Shown here in pieces: positions 2,596 through 64,000 of a stretch of 64,000 bases of DNA. Under the pieces are notes generated by a model. That model saw nothing but the letters and a program-made list of their open reading frames with translations, had not been told where the DNA came from and ran no database searches. Source of the DNA: an uncultured Bacteroidota bacterium (GTDB taxonomy: Bacteria > Bacteroidota > Ignavibacteria > Palsa-1295); NCBI GenBank assembly GCA_963702215.1, contig OY969726.1, positions 1,681,533 to 1,745,532 on the forward strand, in the 5' to 3' direction. A program made the position numbers and the translations under genes. The stretch's first letter is position 1, and every line of letters starts with the position of its first letter.

Positions 2596-4296
2596 TCACG
2601 TTACGGCACTTCCCGATCTCTCGGACCGAGGCGCGGCGGCGCGGCGCTTTCGGATACGCAGCGCAAGCCAGTTCCCGATTCCCCAGAGGAGCGCGAGGAT
2701 GCCGTAGAACATGGCTGGAATCGCAATGTAATCGCCCAATCGAACGTACAATGTCTTTCGCTCGATGAGTGGGACCCGTTCCGTGATGGAACCCGAAACA
2801 AAGATTGGCAAAGACTTTATCGTTTGGCCTCGGTCGTCGAAGAAGGCGGAGATGCCGGTGTTTGCGCAGCGGACGATCCAGCGCCGGTCCTCGATGGCGC
2901 GCAGCGTGGCGAATTGTTCATGCTGATACGGCCCCGGTCTCTTGCCCCACCAGCCATCGTTCGTGATAATGGCAAGCATGTTCGCCCCGCGCTCGACGAA
3001 ATGGCGCACAAAGCTTGGATAGATGGATTCGTAGCAAATGGTCGGCGTTATGCGTAAGGTATCGCGTTCGGAGGGCAGCGGTAATGCGAGGGGCTCGTAG
3101 CCGCGCCCGAAGTTCCAGCTTCCGATTCCCACGTTCCATTCGAACCATTTATCGAGGAACGGGAAGTATTCGTTGAAGGGAATATGCTCGCCAAGTGGCA
3201 CAAGCTTTTGCTTGTGATAAACCTCGCGGTGCATCCGGCCATTCGAATCTTCGTGAATCAGCATGGCGGCGTTCCAACTTTTGGAATACACACCGTCCAC
3301 GCCAGCATAATGTGCATGGGGAGGAATGGTGTCCTCTCCGGCAACATACGTTTTCCGATCCGGGAACCCGGTGAGCAAGGGATGATCGATATGCCCCAGA
3401 AAATTGTACAATTCCCCGAGCTCGTAGGATTCCGCCGGGGACGTAATGTAAAATGTAATCGCTGTTTCCGGCCAGAGGACGAGATCGGTGGAATCGTGGC
3501 ACACGGCGAGTGCATTGCGGGTGGCATCGAAGTTGGTATCGAGCGTACGCCGGGCATCGTTATACCATTTCGCCCATGGATCGATGTTGGGCTGCACGAT
3601 CGTCACCCGAAGCGAGGCGCGCGAAGCTTCATGCTCGTGCATGGCGGGAATACCATATAACAGCGGCGCAGCCACCAAAATGATTAAAGTTACCAGATGG
3701 CCTTTGATTTCGTGCCGTCCGTTTTGCCCCTTCACCAACCGCGTAAGAATCTGAAAAACCTCGACATTCACCAGCACGATAAGGATCGAAAGCAAATACG
3801 GCCCGCTGAATTCGATAAACTGAACATACGGGAGATTGTACGTTTGCGTGTTGTAGAGATTAAGCCACGGATATGCGAGGTCGCCGAACGAATGCGCGTA
3901 TTCGAACCCCGCCTGAAAAATCGGGAGCGAATAGAGCGCAGCATTCCTTCCCACACGCCTGCGGACGACATCATAGAGCAGCCATGGCACGACCAAAAAA
4001 AATGGATGCACGACCGCCAGCAGCACCCCGCCTACCATCAGGAAGGGATCGACCTGGCCCGAAGCCTTCCATCCGCCTACCCAAAAATTCGCAACGATAC
4101 CGAGGACGAACATTGCGATCCAGCAAATCCAAAACGCCTGACGAAGCCGAGTGCCATCTTCGAGCGCGAAAAGCAACGGAACGAGCGCGACGAACGCGAA
4201 CAGACCGCCCGCGAGTCCGGTTGGCGGAAAAGCGAGCCCCAGCAATGCACCGGAAAGCGTGGCGAGTAAGTATCGGTTGCGGCGAGACAGCATCAA
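2596..4296 (-). CDS. lnt: apolipoprotein N-acyltransferase
   Basis: 566 aa with an N-terminal polytopic membrane region and a C-terminal CN-hydrolase domain (WPETA..., ...ICYES...). Confidence 0.85.
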   Translation of the reverse strand: MMLSRRNRYLLATLSGALLGLAFPPTGLAGGLFAFVALVPLLFALEDGTRLRQAFWICWIAMFVLGIVANFWVGGWKASGQVDPFLMVGGVLLAVVHPFFLVVPWLLYDVVRRRVGRNAALYSLPIFQAGFEYAHSFGDLAYPWLNLYNTQTYNLPYVQFIEFSGPYLLSILIVLVNVEVFQILTRLVKGQNGRHEIKGHLVTLIILVAAPLLYGIPAMHEHEASRASLRVTIVQPNIDPWAKWYNDARRTLDTNFDATRNALAVCHDSTDLVLWPETAITFYITSPAESYELGELYNFLGHIDHPLLTGFPDRKTYVAGEDTIPPHAHYAGVDGVYSKSWNAAMLIHEDSNGRMHREVYHKQKLVPLGEHIPFNEYFPFLDKWFEWNVGIGSWNFGRGYEPLALPLPSERDTLRITPTICYESIYPSFVRHFVERGANMLAIITNDGWWGKRPGPYQHEQFATLRAIEDRRWIVRCANTGISAFFDDRGQTIKSLPIFVSGSITERVPLIERKTLYVRLGDYIAIPAMFYGILALLWGIGNWLALRIRKRRAAAPRSERSGSAVT

Positions 4297-4311: not shown

Positions 4312-5442
4312 CTATTGCTTTGCCAGTTCCGCCATCGCAAGCAGAAACGCGCCGGTTCCCCACCACCACTCGCCGGTCGAAAGCGATTTGTAATACTCCA
4401 CCGTGCCCGGCCATGTGCCTTCGGAGACGCCCGTTACGCTCCCCTCAGAATCCACCCTCGACGCCAATGCGCGCGCACCCAGCGTAACAAGGTTCATTGG
4501 CCCTCTGTGTTGAATCACTCCCAAATTCTGCGCCTTTTGAAACGCAAAAACGAACATCGCGGAAGCCGAAACCTCTTCATAACTGGAACTATCATCGAGA
4601 ATGGTACGCCATAGGCCCTGGGTGGTTTGCTCGCCGGCAATGGCTCCGGCCAGCCGCTCGAAAATGGCAAGCAAATTCTTGTAGAGGGAAGTCTTCCGAT
4701 CTAACAATGGCAGAATCTCGGCCAGGGTCATCATGACCCATCCATTGCCGCGTGCCCAGCTTCCCTCCGATCTTGCCCCTCCATGATTTTCTTCGCAATG
4801 AATAAAAAATGGCTTCTCGCCATCCTGCAATCGTTCCAAATGGAGAACGATTTGCTTCACCGCTTCATCTTCCCACGGGATGCCCAGGACAGGCCCGAGC
4901 TTCGAAAGCACCACGGCAGAATAATAGACCGTGTCAATATAAATATTTGGCAAATCGACATTGTGCAACAAGATCCCCTCACCATTGCGCAAAGCCTTAT
5001 CGCGAATAAAATCGTAAATCCCGCGCGCGGTGCCGAGAAGTTGCATTTGGAACTCCGGGAACTCGCGGATGACATCGGGATAGAGCAATCCGAAGCTCCA
5101 CGAGCCGCAAAAATAGTTCACGGGGACACCCTCCGCCAAATGAAAGGCCAGCCATCTTCGAAGATGGTCGCGCACCTTCGGATTATTGTCGATCTCCAAG
5201 CCGCGTAGCAAGCCGTATATCGCGAGCGATTGCCCCCAATCCGTCGATTGCGATTCCGGGCGATGACGTGCAACGAAGGACTCGCTCACTGTGCGAATTA
5301 GGGATAAAGGCTGAAGGGAAGAATTCCCTCCCTTTTGTATCCCGGTGCGCTTTGCCCTGTGCCCTTGACGCTTACTTCTTTCTGGCATTTGAGACAATTT
5401 GGCGCGCGCGATTTTCGATAACGGAGAAATCTCCGGCTTCAA
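4312..5442 (-). CDS. glycoside hydrolase family 105 (unsaturated rhamnogalacturonyl/glucuronyl hydrolase, YteR-like)
   Basis: 376 aa with GH105/GH88-type motifs (...WARGNGWVMM...; six-hairpin fold signature). The start is ambiguous: 5442 overlaps the eda stop by 70 nt, and the alternative start at 5388 still overlaps eda by 17 nt. Confidence 0.75.
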   Translation of the reverse strand: MKPEISPLSKIARAKLSQMPERSKRQGHRAKRTGIQKGGNSSLQPLSLIRTVSESFVARHRPESQSTDWGQSLAIYGLLRGLEIDNNPKVRDHLRRWLAFHLAEGVPVNYFCGSWSFGLLYPDVIREFPEFQMQLLGTARGIYDFIRDKALRNGEGILLHNVDLPNIYIDTVYYSAVVLSKLGPVLGIPWEDEAVKQIVLHLERLQDGEKPFFIHCEENHGGARSEGSWARGNGWVMMTLAEILPLLDRKTSLYKNLLAIFERLAGAIAGEQTTQGLWRTILDDSSSYEEVSASAMFVFAFQKAQNLGVIQHRGPMNLVTLGARALASRVDSEGSVTGVSEGTWPGTVEYYKSLSTGEWWWGTGAFLLAMAELAKQ

Positions 5443-6007
5443 TATCGCGATCGGTAATCAGCGGCGTTCCCACTCCGGTTGCGGAGGCGCCGGCCTCGAA
5501 CCACTCTCCGACGTTTTCGACGGTCACGCCGTTGGTTGGAACGAAACGAATATCCGGGAACGGGCCGCGCAGCGCGCGGATGTATTGCGGGCCGAGCCCG
5601 GCGAGCGGAAAGAGTTTCACGAAATCGGAACCGGCGGCGGATGCCTGCCATGCTTCGGTCGGAGTGAGCGCGCCGGCCATCGAAGCAACATCGGCGGCAT
5701 CGGCCACGGCGAGCATATCAAGATCGGTAACGGGGCTAACAAGAAACTTCGCGCCGCTTTCAACAGCTTTCGTTGCCGCTTCTACGCCGATTACGGTTCC
5801 GGCGCCGACGAGCACCGCGGGAAAATCCTTTGCGATGCGATGGATCGCTTCACTGGCGGCGCGCGAGTTCATCGTGATCTCGATCGTTTTGATCCCGCCG
5901 CGCAGCAACGCTTCAATCACCAGTTCGATCTTCTCGGTTCGTTTCAATCGCAGCACGGCGAAGACGCGCTCCTCCAGAATTCGCTGAATGGTAGTCTCTT
6001 TCTTCAT
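5372..6007 (-). CDS. eda: 2-dehydro-3-deoxyphosphogluconate / 4-hydroxy-2-oxoglutarate aldolase
   Basis: 211 aa KDPG-aldolase fold (..VLRLK.., GAGTV.., FVSP.., KLFPA..). Confidence 0.85.
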   Translation of the reverse strand: MKKETTIQRILEERVFAVLRLKRTEKIELVIEALLRGGIKTIEITMNSRAASEAIHRIAKDFPAVLVGAGTVIGVEAATKAVESGAKFLVSPVTDLDMLAVADAADVASMAGALTPTEAWQASAAGSDFVKLFPLAGLGPQYIRALRGPFPDIRFVPTNGVTVENVGEWFEAGASATGVGTPLITDRDIEAGDFSVIENRARQIVSNARKK

Positions 6008-6015
6008 AGAAGGGA

Positions 6016-6675
6016 TTAGAACGTTTCGAATTTCGAAAATAGCTCCCGGGCTTCACGCCCTGCAGCAAGGCCGGCCGCGGTTTTGTGTTCGCCTTCGATG
6101 GATTTCATCAGCTCCGCATAAATCATTTCAAAATGTACGCTCGGAATGACGATGACTCCATTCGCGTCTCCAAAAATAATATCGTTCGGCTTGATGGTTA
6201 CACCGCCGATTTGGAGGGTGGTATTATATTCCGCCATATATCCGCGTCGCCGGATATCCTTGATGCACCGGTACGCCCCGAAAACCGGGAACCCCAAATT
6301 CGCGATTTGCTCGAAATCTCGGATGCCGCCATTTACAAGTGCACCGACTGCGCCACGCGCCTTCGCCCGTGTGGACATGAGGCCGCCCCAGAGCGCTGCA
6401 TCGATATCGCGATCGGCAGCGACCGCAACAAATGCATTGGCTGAGATAGAATCCACCATTTCGAGGAGTCTGTCGATTTCGACGTACTCTGTCGTGGGCA
6501 CAACCCGGCATGGGAACGCCCGTCCCACCACTTTTAAGCTGGGATCGAAAGGAACGGATTGAATCTCTCGCGGCAAGACATGCGATGGAATTCCGAGGCG
6601 GTCCATCACATCCGAAACGAGCGGAGTAAAAAAATGCTCGAAGCTGCCGAGTTCGACTGGATTAGAAATAGGCAT
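6016..6675 (-). CDS. RraA-family protein (putative class II 4-hydroxy-2-oxoacid aldolase / RraA-like)
   Basis: RraA / dimethylmenaquinone-MTase-like fold (…GGLMSTRAKARGAVGALVNGGIRD…). The start was chosen at ATG 6675..6673, which gives a TGATG overlap with the kduI stop (translational coupling). The longer ORF to 6741 is less likely. Confidence 0.7.
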   Translation of the reverse strand: MPISNPVELGSFEHFFTPLVSDVMDRLGIPSHVLPREIQSVPFDPSLKVVGRAFPCRVVPTTEYVEIDRLLEMVDSISANAFVAVAADRDIDAALWGGLMSTRAKARGAVGALVNGGIRDFEQIANLGFPVFGAYRCIKDIRRRGYMAEYNTTLQIGGVTIKPNDIIFGDANGVIVIPSVHFEMIYAELMKSIEGEHKTAAGLAAGREARELFSKFETF

Positions 6676-7523
6676 CAGCGGAGACCAGTGGGCATCTGTT
6701 CGAAACCAGTCTGCACATTCACGCCTGCAAGCGTGCGCCACGTGTCATCTTCGAGCGAACAAAGCACCCAGCAGAAGTTAATCGGGTAGCCCGGCGCGGC
6801 GACGTTGGGGTGGTAACCTTTTACGATTGTAACGGCATCGTCCTCATACACGGGCTGGACAAATTCCGGGTGTTCCAAATCCGAATAAATAAATTGCGTT
6901 CCGAATCCTGGACGCGGCATATCGAAGAAAAGATAGAGTTCCTCCCGCGTTGCGGCATGTTCGTGCGGTGGCCAACTCGTCCAGTTGCCGGGCTTTGACA
7001 TCGTGGTGCCCATTAGAAGCCGCGAACCTTCCACATTCTCGGCGAGCACTTTGTAAATATCGCGGTAATATGGTTCGTGCCCGACGCGGAGCGTGAGCGC
7101 ATCATTGCTTTTCACCTCACTCTCGAAGTTCACATAATCGGTTGGATGGGACCGATCAGTTGGAGCGGAGGCTTCCACGAGGTCCAGAAAGTCCTCAGTT
7201 GCGATTCTAAACGCCTCGCCGCGCCGAACATAGACCCCATCGAACCTTTGAAGCTCGAATGTTTCCGTTCCCACCTGCACACGCCCGGTTCCGTGCAGGC
7301 AGAAGAGCATCGTCTCGCGGCCCGCGTTTTGGCCAGACGCATTGGGAACGGATTTATCGAGAATGATTCGCCCGGCACGGATCGCTTTGAATGCGGAGTT
7401 CTCCGGTGTAATAGAAATATTACGGCCCTTTTTGGCGGCCGTGTTGCGAAAAAGCCACCCCTGATTTTCCTGATTCATGTAATAACGATTGATTGGATTT
7501 CTAACATCTTTATTGGTAAACAA
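6675..7523 (-). CDS. kduI: 5-dehydro-4-deoxy-D-glucuronate isomerase
   Basis: 282 aa. The N-terminal 'DVR...' and the cupin motifs align with KduI (…WPPHEH…, …GYHPNVAAPGY…). Confidence 0.85.
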   Translation of the reverse strand: MFTNKDVRNPINRYYMNQENQGWLFRNTAAKKGRNISITPENSAFKAIRAGRIILDKSVPNASGQNAGRETMLFCLHGTGRVQVGTETFELQRFDGVYVRRGEAFRIATEDFLDLVEASAPTDRSHPTDYVNFESEVKSNDALTLRVGHEPYYRDIYKVLAENVEGSRLLMGTTMSKPGNWTSWPPHEHAATREELYLFFDMPRPGFGTQFIYSDLEHPEFVQPVYEDDAVTIVKGYHPNVAAPGYPINFCWVLCSLEDDTWRTLAGVNVQTGFEQMPTGLR

Positions 7524-7563
7524 TCATCCGAATCAAAGCAATCACATAAATCATAGTTCAGGA

Positions 7564-8346
7564 TTAATAGGCCAGCCACCCCCCATCGACTACGAGCACG
7601 TGCCCGCTCACGTAATCCGAAGCGGCGGAGGCAAGATACAGAATCGCTCCCTGTATATCTTCCGGCTCGCCCCAGCGCCCGGCGGGAATACGGGAAAGAA
7701 TTTGCTCTTTGCGCTTGGTGTCCGCACGAAGCGCGGCCGTCGCATTCGTTTCGATGTATCCGGGGGCAATGGCATTCACTTGCACTCCATATTTTGCCCA
7801 TTCGTTCGATAGCGCTTTCGTTAGCTGCGCGACGCCGCCTTTCGCCGCCGTATAAGCTGCAACATTCACCCCTCCCTGGAACGAAAGCAGAGAAGCCATA
7901 TTGATGATCTTTCCGCTGCCTTGCTCGATCATCACTTTGCCCACGGCTTGCGCCCAACTAAAAACGGCGTTCAAGTTCGTATCGATCACGTCATACCAAT
8001 CGTGTGCGGTGAAATCGGTGGCTGGTGCGCGGCGAATGATTCCGGCGTTATTCAGAAGAATGTCTATCGTTCGGAATCGCTGAAGCGTCGTGGAGATAAC
8101 CTCCATCATCTTCGCCGGGTCTTTGACATCGGCAACCGCAATGATGGACTGCTCACTCTGCTTTGTCCGATTAGCATCGATGGATTGCTTCACCTCGTTC
8201 AGCGCCGCCTCTTCGCGTCCGACGAGCACGACGTTTGCACCAGACGCGGCCAACGCGAGCGCGCCGGCGCGCCCGAGCCCGCGCGAACCGCCAGTGACGA
8301 TTGCGGTTTTGCCGTCTAAAGAAAATAGCGATTCGAGGAATGACAT
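7564..8346 (-). CDS. kduD: 2-dehydro-3-deoxy-D-gluconate 5-dehydrogenase (SDR)
   Basis: 260 aa SDR with TGGSRGLG, NNAG and YxxxK motifs. It sits in the kdu context. Confidence 0.85.
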   Translation of the reverse strand: MSFLESLFSLDGKTAIVTGGSRGLGRAGALALAASGANVVLVGREEAALNEVKQSIDANRTKQSEQSIIAVADVKDPAKMMEVISTTLQRFRTIDILLNNAGIIRRAPATDFTAHDWYDVIDTNLNAVFSWAQAVGKVMIEQGSGKIINMASLLSFQGGVNVAAYTAAKGGVAQLTKALSNEWAKYGVQVNAIAPGYIETNATAALRADTKRKEQILSRIPAGRWGEPEDIQGAILYLASAASDYVSGHVLVVDGGWLAY

Positions 8347-8690
8347 TACACAAAATTACGAAAAGGAAGAGTCAGCTCCTGACGTTTCGCTCGAATCAAC
8401 ATTCAGCCTCATACACGCTCTACGCATGCCGCTTGAAATATTGCACCTCCCGCTCGTGCTTTTTGGCGGCTCGCTCCGTTTTGAATGTTCCCAAATTTCG
8501 CCGCTTGCCTGTTTTCGGATTCCTTTTTCTGGAATAGAGGCGATATTCCCCGGATGCTAATTTGCGTATCGTAACAGGATTTCACACAATCTCAATGCCA
8601 CTTCACTGAATAATTAACACCGGTCGGTGTGGCTCCGAATAAGAATTTATTTTGTTCCAACTTCAACTTAGCACTTATCCATGAACGAAT

Positions 8691-8978
8691 ATGGGCGACC
8701 AGGAAGTATTTTCAGATCACAACAACGAGAATGATGAGGAGCACGCCAAGCGTGTCAGCGGGGCGTTTGGCTCGCTCGAAAAAAAACTTGGGGAGCGATT
8801 TACCGAAGAGGAGGAGCGCGTTCTCGACATTCGCGAGGCTGCCATTCATCGGGATAAAGCCGCCCTTGAACGGCATTTGAAAGCCACCAAGCTCGAATCG
8901 AGCTGGCTCTATGACGAATTGATGAAGCACCCCGAAGTCTCCGCGATCATCAGCGAGCTTTCGATTATGGGACTGTGA
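8691..8978 (+). CDS. small acidic hypothetical protein
   Basis: 95 aa ORF in an otherwise non-coding gap. There is no recognisable family, so it is an ORF-only call. Confidence 0.3.
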   Translation: MGDQEVFSDHNNENDEEHAKRVSGAFGSLEKKLGERFTEEEERVLDIREAAIHRDKAALERHLKATKLESSWLYDELMKHPEVSAIISELSIMGL

Positions 8979-8994
8979 GCATCGCGGAGCTACG

Positions 8995-9396
8995 CTACGC
9001 CCCGCCGGCCAGCGAAAAAATCAGAATGCCGAGCACGACGAGCGTGAGAACCACGTACATATAGTCCTTCTCAAAGAGGAACGCGAAGACGGAGACGGCA
9101 ACGCGCAGGATGGGCGTGAGAATAAGCAGAAGCATTCCGGTTTGGATGATGGCCTTTCCGTCGCCTGACACTGCTGCGCCGAGAATTCCCCAAACGGAAC
9201 GAAAGATGGCCGGTTCACTCACAAATTTTTGATATGAGGGATGCAGCAAATACGCCGAGGGCATATACACGCCAGCACCAAACACCACGACAACGATGGT
9301 CGCAATCACGCAGATGCGCAGCAGGTTGCCGATGAAAAGCTCGATCTTGTGGTACTCGCGAGTTTCGGTCGCGTCAAATGTTCCCGGTCGCGCCAT
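8995..9396 (-). CDS. DUF1634 family membrane protein
   Basis: 133 aa with 3-4 TM segments. It overlaps the TSUP gene stop by 23 nt; this pairing is typical of DUF1634. Confidence 0.6.
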   Translation of the reverse strand: MARPGTFDATETREYHKIELFIGNLLRICVIATIVVVVFGAGVYMPSAYLLHPSYQKFVSEPAIFRSVWGILGAAVSGDGKAIIQTGMLLLILTPILRVAVSVFAFLFEKDYMYVVLTLVVLGILIFSLAGGA

Positions 9397-10216
9397 TGTA
9401 AATCATCTCCAGTGCCAAGATAAAAATCACGACTGCAAAAATCCTTCGGAGCGTTTTTGGATCGGAACGTCCGAGAACTTTTACGCCCACGAGCGAGCCG
9501 CCGAGCACGCCGAGTACGACCGGCAATGCCAGAACAGGATCGATATAACCCCGGCTCAAATAAATTCCCGCGCTCGCCGCCGCCGTCACGCCGATCATAA
9601 AATTGCTTGTGGTCGTCGAAACTTTGAACGGAAGCTTCATCGCATGATCCATCGCGACGACTTTCACGGCCCCGCCGCCAATCCCAAGGAGGCCCGACAT
9701 GATTCCGGCAAACGCCGATATGCTAAACCCGCCCGCGACATTATGGACGCCATATTTCACCATCCGTCCCTCGTAGGGATATTCCGACGGCAGCTTGAGT
9801 TTTCGCGCGATCGGATCCGAGGTATGTTCCGGGTGATGCTCCAGGCGCGGCCGGCTGGACATCCAAGCAGAGTACAAGAGCATTACTCCGAAAATAATGG
9901 CGATAATGTCCGGCGAAAGAATCCCGGCGAGAAACGCGCCAATCAGCGCGCCAATCGTCGTCGCTATTTCGAGGAACATGCCGATGCGGATATTCGAATA
10001 GCCCTCTTTCACATACGCCGAAGCCGCACCCGACGAGGTAGCGATCACGCTTATGAGCGAGGCGCCGATCGCGTAGCGAATATTAACACCAAAGCCCAGC
10101 GTGAGAAGGGGAACGATAACGATGCCACCGCCCAGGCCGGTGAGTGAGCCCAGAAAACCGGCCAGCAGCGCTCCGCCGAAAAGAATGGCGTCAAATTCAG
10201 CAATGTTCAGGTGCAT
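9374..10216 (-). CDS. TSUP family (TauE/SafE) sulfite/anion exporter
   Basis: 280 aa polytopic protein with duplicated 4-TM halves and G-rich motifs (LTGLGGGIVIVPLL ... LLGIGGGAVKVVAM). Confidence 0.8.
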   Translation of the reverse strand: MHLNIAEFDAILFGGALLAGFLGSLTGLGGGIVIVPLLTLGFGVNIRYAIGASLISVIATSSGAASAYVKEGYSNIRIGMFLEIATTIGALIGAFLAGILSPDIIAIIFGVMLLYSAWMSSRPRLEHHPEHTSDPIARKLKLPSEYPYEGRMVKYGVHNVAGGFSISAFAGIMSGLLGIGGGAVKVVAMDHAMKLPFKVSTTTSNFMIGVTAAASAGIYLSRGYIDPVLALPVVLGVLGGSLVGVKVLGRSDPKTLRRIFAVVIFILALEMIYNGATGNI

Positions 10217-59312: not shown

Positions 59313-62300
59313 TTACTTGCTCAGGGTCAGCTTCTTCGAGAGCGTGACGGTCTGTCCGTCGGCGCCGGTGGCTATGAGTTCATAGACATAGCTGCCGTTG
59401 GCGAGTCTCGAGAGATCGAGCGTTACGTTCTGCTCGCCCGCGCCATAGCTCGCGTTCGTCACCGGAGCGCTCACCACCTTGCCCGTCACATCCATGACGC
59501 GCAGTGTAACTTGCGAGGCTTCCGGAAGCGTGAAGCTCACGTCCGCCGCGCCACTCGTCGCCGGGTTCGGATAGCTCTGGCCTAGCGTGAACCCAAGCTC
59601 CGCCGCATCGGGGCCAAGTTCGATCGCGTTCGAATACGTCTTCGCCCCGCTCTGATCGATCGCTACCACGCGGTACGTGTAGCTCTTCGTCAGGTCGATC
59701 GTTGCATCCGTATAGGCATACTGCGTCTCGGTTATCGGCCGCACTGACGGAACCGAGTTTCTCCCACATCGGCTGCACGTCCGCGCCTGAGGCTGCGCCC
59801 GTACCCGGAACCATTTGTTCCACGTCGTACTGCGCCACATCCTTCTGCTGCGCGATCTGCCAGGAGATCAGGGCGTTCTGGCCCACATGCTCCGCCGTCG
59901 CATTCACGAACTCCACCGGAAGGATCGTACCCGCATGGCTGCGGAAGAAGGCGAAGGCTGCCGCCAGCGTCCGAGTCGTGCCGCTCGTCGTGTCCCCAAA
60001 CCCGCCCGGTATCGTTTGCACCGGATCCGACCAGTCGAACCCGTAGAATACCGTGTTGATCGTCGGGTTGTAGTACGTCGTACCCGCGCCGGAGTCCGCC
60101 GAACTGTTCGGATGCATCCGGTACGTATAGGCATAGCCCGTTACTTCCGGTCCAACTAACGGCGTCGAGAACGACGGTTTCACAACGTCCGGCGATGTCG
60201 AGTTCAGGCTGTCCGGATATTTCCAGAACGCCGGCTGCTGACCATCGATCCAGTTGTGGTACACCGCGCCGTCCATCATCGGATCGTTCTGCACGAACCG
60301 CGTGTGCATGTACGATTGCAGCCATTCCGTATCCGTCACCGGGATGAAGCCCGGCGCGTTGTTCGGCATGACGTAACCGTTATAGTAGGCAACGTTCTGA
60401 CCGGCTATCACCATGCTCTTCTTCGCATAGTCACGGCCCTGCTGCAGGTAGCGCTCCACTTCCTGCGTCTCCTTGAAGGAAAGACCACCCTGACCCGTCA
60501 CCTGACCGTAGGACGGGGCGATCGTCGGATCGCCGCTCACCCAGACCAGCGTCCACCACGGGGTGTAGTCGATGTCCGTCGAATCCGAAAGCCCGTCCGG
60601 AGCATTACGATCCAGCGTATCGAACGGTACGCCCAACCGGGTCAGCGCAAGCTTCACCGAGTCCAGATTCTGAAGCCCAAAGGCCGTCGCACCGTTGTAG
60701 CTTACCAGCACCGCGTTCTGCTTCAGCAATACGTGGAAGACCTTGACCTGCGAATTGTTCACATTGTCCTGATCCGTCGGTACGCTCACCGTTAGACGGA
60801 ATACGCTCTGCGATACCGTGTTCGGGTTGAGGGTCGGACCCTGCCAGACTACTTGCTGCGTCTCGCTCACGTCCCAGTTCATTGCCGACGAGTTCGAGTT
60901 GAAGATCGTCGTCCATGGGCCGCCATTGATCGCCTGTTCCACCTTCGCGTTCACCGTACGGCCAAAGACCGACTGGCTCGAAAGGTTCTTCACCTGCGCC
61001 GTGATCCACAGCGGATTCTCCGTCGTCACCAGCGAGGTGTCCGATGTCTCCGAGAAGCCCGCTGGCTGCGTGATCGACATCACCGCAAGGTCGTTCGTGT
61101 ATTGGAATCCATCCCATTCGTCCGCGCCGATATCGACCGACTGCGCGCTCAGACGCTGGTCGCCATCGAAATCGCGAGTCTGCGTCGCCGTCCCGAGCCA
61201 CGCCCCATTGCCCGAGGCCGCGCTTTCGATATACGTCAGCGCAGAAGGCATGTGAAGCGAATCCGTTCCAACCGCGAACCGGGGATCCCCTGTCAGCGAG
61301 TGCAGATCCTGACCCACATACGAACGCCAGTCGTTCAGCGTGCGGAAATAACGAGTCTGGAAGACCGTACCATACCGGACGTCATATTCCACTAACGAAT
61401 CGAATACGTTCGTGCCGCGAAGATCGAACAGGTTATAATCCGAACTGATCGCGCTCGCAAACGGTCGCGGAACCTCCAGCCAGTAGTTCGAATACGGACC
61501 CGAGCCGGTGTTCTGCAAAATGTTGTTCCACAAGAACACGTGCTTCGCGAACTGCACCTTGATATTGGCTAACGCGTTGTTCGTCGAGATCGAGTTGTTG
61601 AAGATCGAATCCTGGTCCGCAGAATACTGCGAGCCCGCCGTCGTCATCGCGATCGGGTACGAGCCAAACGTCCCTTCTTCTTCTTCGCCACCGCCGGCCT
61701 GAAGATCGAAGATCATGTTGTTCGTGATGCGGTTCTGCGTTTCGATCGGTAACGTCGATTGATCCCCAGGGCCCCCATTGCCGACCTGGTAGATCGTCAC
61801 CGCCTGCTGGATCGCTACACCATAGGCATCGCCACCCACCGAACGAATGTCGTGAATACGGTTGGCATCCACCCAGCAGCGAACCACGTTGCCCGCCGTG
61901 TCCGGAACTACGCCAAGCGTGTCCGTAACCAGCGTCAGAGGAACCGTCGTCTGAGGGCTTTCGATGCCATAGACGTTCCAGTTCATCCCCGTCGAACCCG
62001 CGTTCGCCGAGTTCACGTTCGTGATCTCGTTGTGCGATACCGTCAGATCCTGTTCGTTCGTGAACGAGATACCCGCAAACGAGAGCGGATCGCTCGAGGT
62101 CCCGATCGTATTCCGGGTGAACGTGTTCGAATTGTTACGCCACACGATATACTGCTCCGAGCCTAAGTTGAACATGTCGTGCAGCCCGTGATCGTACAAG
62201 CCATACTTCGCATTGCCAAGCTCGCAGTTGTTCACCACGATATGGTTGATCGGAATCGTGTCGTGAACCAACTGAAGGTAAATCGACCGGTTCTGCTGGT

Positions 62301-64000
62301 TGTAAATGCGAATCGCCGATGAGGAATCGCTCGTAAAGTTACCATTGCCGTGAAGAATCAAATCCTTCATCGTGAGATGGCTCGAGCCTTGCTCAATATC
62401 GAAGATCGAACCCGCGTTCGTCTCGTTATCCACGATCGTCAGGCCTCGCTTGGCCGGCTCCGCCATCAGTTTGTCCGGAACCGGTACGCCCAACGGGTTA
62501 TACCCTTCGAACGTCATGTAGCCGCCAAACAAATCGCCAAAGTAGAAGCACGATGGCTGACGGCCCGTGAATGTAATCGTCGGATGTACGCCCGGCTTCG
62601 GTTCCCAGATCACCGGTGTCGTCGGGGAAAGCTGGAGGTGCCGGAAGTCGATCGCCGCGTTCGGTGAAGAGGCGATGTCCGTCCCGTTCTCCGTGTAATT
62701 CGCATCCGTCAGGATGAGGTGAAGCGTATCCGATACGCCGCGGAAGGCAATCGAATCCGCCGCCGCGTGGATCGTTTGGAACCGCTGGCCTACACCTACA
62801 TAAATGTTCCCCTTGAGCTGCGGAATGATCGAAAACTCCGAACATGCCGTGTCGTTCGTGTGATCGCCATCGCCCGGATACTTCGCGATCGCGCAGATCG
62901 TGTAACAGCCCGGCGGCAAGTTCGAAATACGGTACGTCCCATTGACTGACGGGAAGTAGAACCGTACGTTGCCCTGATCGATGTTCAGTTCCGGTATCGT
63001 CGAGTCCGATATGAAGACCGGTGTCGTGGGATTCGAGCAGCTATAAATACGAACTTCCGTCGGTACGTCGAATAAATCCGAGACGCCCAGTGAAGCGAAT
63101 AGTGCACCCGGCTGCCACGTCGTCTTCTCCGGCTTCTCTTCATCCGGCTGTGGATTTACGATCGAAGTCGCCGCCGCATCGTAAATCGGACGAACGAGCA
63201 CCTGGCCGCATACCGTGTCATCGCCGGGTAGTTGGTCGCCGGGCAAGATCGAGATGCCGCAAATCTTATGGATGCCGACCACCGTCGGAGTCCATTGCTC
63301 CGGAAATGTCGTATCGTAATACGGGCCTTTGCCAGGACCCTGACCTGCCTGCGAGAAATCAGAACTGCCATCCGAATTGCCGCCGAGCGAACCCGTCGGC
63401 CAATTCGGTATCCAAAGCGTATCGCGGTATTCAACCGCGCCCGATGGATCGCGAATCACTGCCGTAAGCGGTACATTCGTTTGGTTCGCCGTGCCCGTAT
63501 TGCGGAACCGCATATCGATTGGCGTTGCGATAGCGATTGGAGTCCGGTCCGATGCGCCCAAACCCACCGGTGGACTCAGAATAGCCACAGCCTTGATGTC
63601 GTTCGGAGGCGAACAAATCCATTCGTTCGTCGTCGTGTTGTTCGACGGATCCTGATCCGCTGTCGGCTGTAAATTATAGACGATCGCCGTGTCCTCGTAA
63701 ATATTATAACCGTAATACAAGATTCCGTTGATCGTCGTATCGTGAGGTCTGTAAGGCGGGAAGGAAACCGTGCCCGTCGAAAACGCACCCGGTAGCGTTC
63801 CAGAAGGCGGAACCGTGATCGTTTGGTTATACACTTCCGGACCGTTCACGATCGACATCACCAAATTCACTTGAAGCGAAGTCGGAATTAAACGACCCTG
63901 GTTCGTAATCTGAACCCTCGGCGTAAAGACGGAGTCCTTCGCCACTAAGTCCTCGTTCCCGGGAGCCGTAATCGCATCGGCCGAAAAATCGTAATTCCAC
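59313..64000 (-). CDS. giant beta-helix (PbH1 repeat) surface protein with an Fn3-like domain and a T9SS C-terminal sorting domain; 5' end beyond the window; apparent frameshift near 59760
   Basis: The frame of ORF 59380..63945 is open to the window edge, so the GTG at 63945 is not a real start. It has many PbH1-type repeats (…NNCELGNAKYGLYDHG…). Its last ~120 codons are arginine-rich nonsense. The +1 frame (ORF 59313..59840) instead encodes an Fn3-like segment (…TQYAYTDATIDLTKSYTYRVVAIDQSG…) and a T9SS CTD (…GQSYPNPATS…VTLSKKLTLSK). Confidence 0.7.

Follow-up and report, generated by a model that had tools for sequence, protein, structure and literature searches.

Which reaction should be expected of an RraA-like protein whose gene lies between the isomerase and aldolase genes of a uronate catabolic operon? 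Pectin, glycosaminoglycans and alginate yield unsaturated uronates, a carbon source of major importance, and the textbook route for their use needs a kinase and a 2-keto-3-deoxy-6-phosphogluconate (KDPG) aldolase. The activities proven so far for the RraA fold are those of the HMG/CHA aldolase (HMG, 4-hydroxy-4-methyl-2-oxoglutarate; CHA, 4-carboxy-4-hydroxy-2-oxoadipate), of oxaloacetate decarboxylase and of the FlDet dehydratase/decarboxylase. We analysed a stretch of 64,000 nucleotides (the window) from contig OY969726.1 of an uncultured Bacteroidota bacterium (Ignavibacteria, Palsa-1295), in which such a gene occupies positions 6016-6675 of the minus strand. The linkage of this gene to KduI and KduD is robust, and its product represents a subfamily, so far uncharacterised, of a familiar enzyme fold, with a pathway context that is new. 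Probably we are dealing with a new lyase for keto-deoxy sugar acids, one that replaces no missing step of the pathway. We estimate a probability of about 0.8 that it is an enzyme which serves the metabolism of 2-oxo-3-deoxy sugar acids and is linked to the KduI/KduD step. That it is specifically a 2-keto-3-deoxygluconate (KDG) aldolase, whose retro-aldol cleavage makes a side branch and not a replacement, is given about 0.4, the substrate and reaction being inferred from the gene context in the Kapaibacteria clade and in a wider family named HLB5.

Organization of the operon

The minus strand of the window carries five tightly packed genes at 4312-8346, in the order kduD, KduI-like, RraA-like, eda and GH88/105. 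From upstream to downstream, the features are as follows.

8347-8690, minus strand: non-coding stretch upstream of kduD, free of open reading frames (ORFs), probable promoter region of the five-gene unit
7564-8346, minus strand: KduD-type short-chain dehydrogenase/reductase (SDR), 260 aa, first gene of the operon (TIGR01832, NF005390, Pfam adh_short_C2)
6675-7478, minus strand: divergent KduI/IolB-family bicupin isomerase, 267 aa (PF04962, E 3e-33)
6673-6677, minus strand: TGATG stop/start overlap of the KduI-like and RraA-like genes (direct reading of the sequence)
6016-6675, minus strand: RraA-like protein, 219 aa (PF03737, E 1.9e-30; AF2 model; Foldseek)
5372-6007, minus strand: eda, KDPG/2-keto-4-hydroxyglutarate (KHG) aldolase, 211 aa (PF01081, E 5.7e-42; TIGR01182)
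4312-5388, minus strand: GH88/GH105-type unsaturated uronyl hydrolase, about 358 aa from the ATG at 5388 (PF07470, E 7.5e-45)

A preliminary description of the locus had reported a cluster GH105-eda-RraA-like-kduI-kduD on one strand, with the RraA-like start overlapping the kduI stop and eda following 8 nt downstream. Sequence and profiles bear out this arrangement, with the first label widened to GH88/105 and kduI qualified as divergent. The TGA of the KduI-like gene (6677-6675) and the ATG of the RraA-like gene (6675-6673) share 1 nt, and the RraA-like TAA (6018-6016) is followed by the eda ATG at 6007. The gap between the SDR gene and the KduI-like gene is 85 nt, and the hydrolase gene, which most plausibly starts with the ATG at 5388, runs over the last 17 nt of eda.

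The SDR found its best score among 231 SDR models with the kduD model TIGR01832 (323.9 bits against a cutoff of 338.85), and it reached 325 bits against 369 with NF005390. The KduI-like protein obtained 52 bits with the KduI equivalog (cutoff 250) and 81 bits with IolB (cutoff 205); in the PDB it matched the IolB-like structure 2QJV, and KduI structures gave E values of only 1e-6 to 1e-8. By these profiles "kduI" is a divergent member of the KduI/IolB family, to which a putative isomerase role is assigned from context. Eda exceeded the cutoff of TIGR01182 (175.8 bits against 156.05), showing that a KDPG aldolase is present. The GH105 label of the hydrolase is not separable from GH88 with the profiles used, as PF07470 spans both families. 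In translation, the N-terminus of the hydrolase is basic and non-hydrophobic, without signal peptide, so the enzyme would be cytoplasmic. A sigma-70 scan upstream of kduD gave weak matches only, and promoter and terminator scans are uninformative for this lineage.

Family, fold and active-site residues of the RraA-like protein

The protein is a clear member of PF03737 (106.5 bits with a cutoff of 24.5, over the full profile of 152 positions), but it falls far below the functional models within this family: 42 bits against 136 for the RraA equivalog NF006875, and 50.7 against 304.5 (TIGR02798) and 60.6 against 179 (NF006731) for the HMG/CHA aldolase equivalogs. The top-scoring curated models were two "hypothetical protein" subfamilies with 88 and 82 bits. 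By sequence the closest solved structure is 5IR2 (phmmer E 8.5e-28), then 3K4I (6e-18), while true RraA, yeast YER010c and the Pseudomonas putida aldolase 3NOJ all stand at about 1e-8 to 1e-9. An AF2 model built on 20 family members was confident (pLDDT 88.6), and its top 26 Foldseek matches were all RraA-fold structures with TM of 0.53-0.82, led by 5IR2 (TM 0.82), 2C5Q, 3K4I, 5X15 and 3NOJ.

In the 3NOJ-type aldolase, Arg-123 is the essential enolate stabiliser, Asp-124 and Glu-199 are metal ligands and Gly-101 lies in the pyruvate pocket (PMC5065237). R119, D120, E196 and G97 of the window protein align with R123, D124, E199 and G101 of 3NOJ and are invariant in 20 family sequences, these equivalences being read from the alignment. 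The position of 3NOJ Asp-102, which in the 2010 work of Wang et al. is said to hold a metal-bound water, is Gly in the window protein (G98) and likewise in HLB5 and YER010c. A loop K139-D-I-R-R-R-G145 is almost invariant in the family and common to a homologue from Acidimicrobiia; it is homologous to the active-site loop bearing Thr-145 and Lys-147.

Since the catalytic and metal residues are kept, the curated models are missed and the fold is matched, the window protein looks like an active metal-dependent 2-oxo-acid enzyme rather than a degradosome regulator. As to the HMG/CHA-aldolase-type activity which the preliminary description had named as an alternative, the retained Arg, Asp and Glu agree with it, and the equivalog scores so far below the cutoffs do not.

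Nearly all relatives at 58-86% identity derive from Candidatus Kapaibacterium or from related metagenome-assembled genomes with a Bacteroidota, Ignavibacteria or Chlorobi label, and the best match among species representatives is 81% identical. The close subfamily is small, because the full-library protein search returned only 15 representative clusters at E 1e-30 or better. Some RraA relatives are fusions: RidA (L-PSP)-RraA (P0365, 41% identity in the RraA part), tandem RraA-RraA and cytidylyltransferase-RraA. Among the fused or tandem relatives P0372, P0374, P0382, P0470 and P0488, several are RraA-RraA tandems of about 420-450 aa. These domain fusions gave no clear functional lead.

Conservation of the KduD-KduI-RraA trio

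The scan of species-representative genomes gave 34 loci, 28 of them Kapaibacteria-type, and 27 of these had enough upstream sequence to be informative. A KduI-like gene lies directly upstream of the RraA-like gene in 23 of the 27, and by ORF clustering a KduD-type SDR usually precedes it. The overlap of stop and start by 1 or 4 nt (TGATG, TAATG or ATGA) is retained in three quarters of the independent Kapaibacteria loci (15/20). Mean identity to the window proteins over 19 loci was 62% for KduD, 74% for KduI, the highest, and 66% for the RraA-like protein; these similar values suggest that the three genes evolve as a unit. The Eda-GH88/105 pair stands behind the trio in 10 loci, and elsewhere unrelated genes follow, such as SecDF or genes of unknown proteins.

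Behind the trio two further gene types were seen. Five loci without the Eda-GH88 pair (L011, L015, L018, L024, L028) have there a paralogous protein pair of about 279 and 334 aa (L011:10800-12709), and neither member of the L011 pair has a Pfam match. In three relatives, a glyoxalase/vicinal oxygen chelate (VOC) family protein of 108-126 aa comes after the GH88/105 gene (L006:12335-12661, L012:8505-8843, L022:12241-12621); it is absent from the window. It might be a handler of a reactive dicarbonyl intermediate.

KDG kinase and the phosphorylative route

The preliminary description had noticed that the 64 kb contain no KDG kinase, and we obtained the same result: tblastn with five KdgK-type kinases gave a best E of only 0.5, and Pfam scans of 30 of the larger window ORFs, which include most of the kinase-sized ones, found no PfkB; what they showed were proteins of histidine biosynthesis, housekeeping proteins and membrane proteins. 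A PfkB kinase is present in four relatives (L006, L007, L012, L013) some 8 kb downstream of the same cluster, between a xylose-isomerase-like TIM-barrel gene and a GH38 gene. The KdgK equivalog is its best NCBIfam match, with 163-182 bits under a cutoff of 400.

A search of the protein collection recovered P0151, which is 63% identical to the L007 kinase. For P0151, the longest contig of its protein cluster has 3,581,381 bp, and the one contig on which the exact RraA-like protein of the window (P0001) is recorded has the same length. P0151 is also found on a 4.1-kb contig of run ERR11594399, with the same context of TIM-barrel gene, PfkB gene and long ORF (L037:1228-2196), and the same run gave L001, which is 99.94% identical to window 5160-8719. 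The G+C content of the 4.1-kb contig is 54.5%, against 54.0% for the window, and the two do not overlap. Best PDB matches of P0151 are the ketodeoxygluconokinases 3LHX (E 4.6e-36) and 4E69. From these sequence matches and contig records we conclude that the genome encodes a predicted KdgK-type kinase, P0151, outside the window.

With P0151 elsewhere and eda adjacent, the canonical phosphorylative route appears complete, and because it is intact a non-phosphorylative route could be a parallel branch only. The argument of the preliminary description, in which the missing kdgK spoke for a non-phosphorylative route, therefore fails at the genome level. The complete route agrees with PMC12838403, a survey in which kdgK and kdgA accompany 98% of the isomerase-reductase clusters of 3,550 complete genomes.

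The KdgK-type kinase of this lineage always adjoins the xylose-isomerase-like TIM-barrel and GH38 alpha-mannosidase-like genes (L037:1228-2196, L006:18969-19949 and equivalents), a neighbourhood which is not obviously uronate-related.

Wider relatives and the HLB5 family

In a neighbour-joining tree, which is rough, being built on a 90-residue core and without support values, the Kapaibacteria clade grouped with the Acidimicrobiia homologue (45% identity) and with a homologue on a Paracoccus zhejiangensis plasmid (40%). Next to the Acidimicrobiia gene lie those of a KduD-like SDR, a PfkB fragment and an ABC transporter. The Paracoccus gene stands between a KduD-like SDR and a ChrR-type cupin, and this group is preceded by a GntR/FCD regulator and a tripartite tricarboxylate transporter; the cupin has no detectable similarity with the KduI-like protein of the window. 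A trio of SDR, cupin and RraA thus recurs in an alphaproteobacterium together with a carboxylate importer (plasmid pPZ01, L043:3512-9184). The neighbours of a Bacillota homologue (36% identity) are genes for a KdgK-type kinase, Eda, two lactonases and an HpcH aldolase.

Beyond these, the nearest family is HLB5. It is huge, with 83-95% identity across Bacteroidota classes, an extreme degree of conservation. Its members (L038-L042, L044, L045) are found either together with GH10 xylanases within SusC/D loci or in clusters of smaller size. The genes met there repeatedly encode a glucose- or rhamnose-1-dehydrogenase-like SDR, a lactonase, an enolase-superfamily or UxuA-type dehydratase and a major facilitator superfamily transporter, and in the HLB5 clusters examined a kinase, Eda and an aldehyde dehydrogenase were all absent. 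These clusters may be read as a route from sugar to lactone, sugar acid and 2-keto-3-deoxy acid. In them, the RraA-fold protein is the sole candidate for the terminal C-C lyase.

The HLB5 structure 5IR2, from Parabacteroides johnsonii, was reported as a "novel cellulase" from assays with carboxymethylcellulose and Miscanthus (bioRxiv 10.1101/516542). We took this label as no reliable guide to function; neither fold nor gene context supports a cellulase. HLB5 resembles a lyase at the end of an oxidative sugar-acid route, and we doubt the cellulase label.

It is conceivable, though we think it doubtful, that the Kapaibacteria protein and the HLB5 family belong to one class, so far unrecognised, of metal-dependent RraA-fold aldolases acting on 2-keto-3-deoxy sugar acids (for example KDG and keto-deoxy-pentonates), in which case 5IR2 would be misannotated. 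If true, bacteria would have in such a joint class a way to leave uronate and oxidative sugar pathways without a kinase, within polysaccharide utilisation loci.

Proposed function and the points against it

We propose that the RraA-like protein is a cytoplasmic, divalent-metal-dependent enzyme with an active site of the class II pyruvate-aldolase type, in which the Arg would stabilise the enolate of a 2-oxo acid and the Asp and Glu would hold Mg2+. It would be co-translated with the KduI-family isomerase and the KduD reductase. In the cytoplasm, GH88/105 would release a 4,5-unsaturated uronate, which would open to 5-keto-4-deoxyuronate (DKI), and KduI and KduD would convert DKI through 3-deoxy-D-glycero-2,5-hexodiulosonate (DKII) to KDG. 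The RraA-like enzyme would then cleave KDG, or a closely related 2-keto-3-deoxy-hexonate, to pyruvate and glyceraldehyde by a retro-aldol reaction, as a non-phosphorylative side branch beside KdgK and Eda.

What is established here comprises the fold, the conservation of the catalytic residues and of the operon with its coupling, and the kinase elsewhere in the genome. KDG cleavage is still the leading hypothesis because distant relatives adjoin producers of 2-keto-3-deoxy sugar acids. The non-phosphorylative cleavage suggested by the preliminary description survives in this form as the best of several hypotheses, favoured by the residues, the KduI/KduD linkage and the contexts of the relatives, but only as a parallel branch. 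Of the findings which that description had named as telling against its suggestion, a kdgK elsewhere in the genome was found, but the protein stands apart from true RraA and its catalytic residues are kept. In the literature searched, no paper links this RraA-like subfamily to uronate catabolism, KduI, KduD or KDG.

Several points weigh against a KDG aldolase. It would be redundant, as the KdgK and Eda route is complete, and a glyceraldehyde-handling enzyme was not seen near any locus. The RraA-like genes of the Acidimicrobiia homologue and the Bacillota homologue stand beside PfkB and/or Eda, and at four Kapaibacteria loci (L025, L026, L027, L029) the gene lies among unrelated neighbours, without KduI or KduD. 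The KDIRRRG loop hints at a substrate more anionic than KDG, with a phosphate or a second carboxylate; a singly charged KDG leaves its three Arg unexplained, and phosphorylated or dicarboxylate substrates stay alive. Characterised HMG/CHA aldolases use 4-carboxy-substituted substrates. FlDet was inactive on KDG, as it was on KDPG and 4-deoxy-L-erythro-5-hexoseulose uronate (DEHU) (PMC8563752).

Alternative explanations

The protein might catalyse another 2-oxo-acid reaction with a looser tie to the pathway, as an oxaloacetate decarboxylase, a 2,4-diketo-3-deoxy acid hydrolase or a KDPG or DKII lyase. Oxaloacetate decarboxylation is a general side activity of the fold (3NOJ molecule name; PMC5065237), and RraA-like domains are fused to FAH-family hydrolases (NF009399) and to the RidA domain of P0365. 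The unrelated contexts at the four Kapaibacteria loci and the basic loop, which suggests a phosphate or a second carboxylate, fit such a reaction as well. However, a loose link fails to explain the trio in 23/27 loci and the overlap in 15/20. We regard this explanation as unlikely.

Another explanation, also unlikely, is that the protein is an analogue of KdgF, which would speed the ring opening and enol-to-keto conversion of the unsaturated uronate and deliver DKI to KduI, followed by KduD, KdgK and Eda. The ring-opened uronate is the enol of a 2-oxo acid, and ketonising a metal-bound enolpyruvate moiety is a half-reaction of all enzymes of the fold, as seen from the pyruvate proton-exchange data (PMC5065237). 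The RraA-like gene also has the isomerase/reductase-adjacent place which cupin KdgF holds in other clusters (PMC12838403). No KdgF-sized cupin was seen in the Kapaibacteria loci, where small ORFs were not systematically screened and those of <90 aa were left out. The translational coupling to KduI would suit the hand-over of an unstable product, and the absence of a signal peptide in GH88/105 implies that the unsaturated uronate would arise in the cytoplasm. Such a role needs no extra enzymes and is compatible with a genome having KdgK and Eda. However, no tautomerase of the RraA fold is known to us; HLB5-type contexts, in which an unsaturated uronate is not to be expected, would stay unexplained, and the Paracoccus cluster has a small cupin which could be KdgF-like itself.

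In an oxidative branch of the FlDet type, the SDR would also oxidise DKI to 5-keto-4-deoxy-glucarate (KDGR), and the RraA-like protein would act on it as a dehydratase/decarboxylase to give alpha-ketoglutarate semialdehyde (alpha-KGSA). FlDet, an RraA-family protein of Flavobacterium sp. UMI-01, has this activity, and its SDR both reduces and oxidises 5-keto-4-deoxyuronate (PMC8563752). The SDR is the most constant neighbour of our clade across phyla, and a second carboxylate could bind the basic RRR loop. But the identity to FlDet is just 30% over 92 residues, by which we ruled out orthology, and the nearest structure is 5X15 for FlDet against 5IR2 for the window protein. The rough tree places FlDet with the HMG/CHA aldolase, away from the Kapaibacteria clade, and the Asp-102 equivalent is present in FlDet (GD) and Gly in the window protein. 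An aldehyde dehydrogenase was not found among the window ORFs scanned (cluster neighbours and suitably sized ORFs) or the related-locus neighbours examined. We consider this branch quite improbable.

It is very improbable that the protein is a regulator of the RraA type, as the preliminary description had also considered, which would bind RNase E/G or a DEAD-box helicase and tune mRNA decay during uronate use. The fold is common to E. coli RraA and the long-form inhibitor RraAS2 of Streptomyces, and HLB5, with its 83-95% conservation, is more conserved than is usual for a catabolic enzyme at the periphery of metabolism, for which a protein partner could be the reason. Yet the score of 42 bits is far from the cutoff of 136, the length is 219 aa against about 160, the catalytic and metal residues are all invariant, and the gene is translationally coupled in a catabolic operon.

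The weakest explanation is that the organism has no KdgK and the RraA-like aldolase is the sole exit for KDG, which would agree with a 64-kb window without PfkB kinase but is largely refuted by P0151, which shares the 3,581,381-bp contig size and the run with the window protein and has ketodeoxygluconokinases as best PDB matches, by eda 8 nt downstream and by the 98% kdgK/kdgA co-occurrence with isomerase-reductase clusters (PMC12838403). The idea that the RraA-like protein substitutes for the kinase, from the resemblance of the fold to phosphohistidine domains, was rejected as well: no phosphotransfer residues are shared (PMC5065237), and PfkB kinases co-occur with the RraA-like gene in relatives.

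Neighbouring genes

Downstream of the operon, lnt (apolipoprotein N-acyltransferase; 2596-4296, minus strand) begins 15 nt past the GH88/105 stop and occupies the same place in L003 and L004, so that it may be co-transcribed with the catabolic genes. Upstream of kduD and on the same strand, a DUF1634 protein gene (8995-9396) overlaps the gene of a TauE/SafE-family permease (9374-10216), the pair spanning 8995-10216; a plus-strand ORF of 95 aa and the non-coding stretch lie between them and kduD. An ORF of 1521 aa is found at 59380-63945 of the minus strand.

Significance

If true, an RraA-fold metal-dependent lyase in an isomerase-reductase operon would add a new enzyme step to the uronate pathway, and the short list of proven RraA-fold activities would grow. 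Thousands of Bacteroidota genes in sugar-utilisation loci that are called "RraA family protein", including the one behind the "cellulase" structure, would gain a working hypothesis. The known pathway in the Kapaibacteria organism is not overturned, because the kinase is present.

Comparison with known systems

The locus resembles the canonical kduI-kduD/kdgF/kdgK/kdgA pathway: it clusters genes for GH88/105, a KduI-family isomerase, a KduD-type reductase and Eda, and the KdgK-type kinase is encoded elsewhere, as in most bacteria. It differs in its divergent isomerase, in the RraA-fold gene, which separates eda from the isomerase gene and is translationally coupled to the latter, and in that a KdgF cupin was not seen, small ORFs not having been screened systematically.

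With E. coli-type RraA the window protein shares the PF03737 family and the core fold, but RraA has about 160 aa and is without the N-terminal extension of the window protein. To our knowledge, RraA of this type is not encoded in catabolic operons. With the HMG/CHA aldolase (LigK/GalC/ProA; 3NOJ of P. putida F1) it has in common the fold, the essential Arg, the metal Asp, the Glu which the C-terminal helix contributes and the pyruvate-pocket Gly. In contrast, identity in the structural alignment is 18%, the equivalog scores are missed and Asp-102 is replaced by Gly. The window neighbours are uronate-pathway and housekeeping genes and no protocatechuate/gallate 4,5-cleavage cluster, and the likely substrate of the window protein has no 4-carboxylate.

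HLB5 is similar at 34% identity, with a long N-terminal extension, GG in place of GD, the RD catalytic pair and an Arg equivalent to R144. It is nevertheless a separate family of 247 aa on its own branch of the tree, to which the window protein is 34-40% identical against 83-95% within HLB5. It is without the DIRRRG loop and has lactonase, dehydratase and sugar-dehydrogenase genes in xylan-type loci, not KduI and KduD.

FlDet, too, is an RraA-family protein which works downstream of an SDR, is stimulated by divalent cations and acts on a 2-keto-3-deoxy acid derived from 5-keto-4-deoxyuronate: it converts 2-keto-3-deoxy-glucarate to alpha-ketoglutarate semialdehyde in the oxidative branch of alginate-derived uronate catabolism (Nishiyama et al., PMC8563752). 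Its sequence, which we assembled from Supplementary Fig. 8 of PMC8563752, belongs to another subclade, the 30% identity over 92 residues contrasting with 63-80% among FlDet orthologues. It requires an alpha-KGSA dehydrogenase as partner, and none was found among the window ORFs scanned or the neighbours examined. FlDet is not an orthologue of the window protein; it is a precedent for the RraA fold in uronate catabolism.

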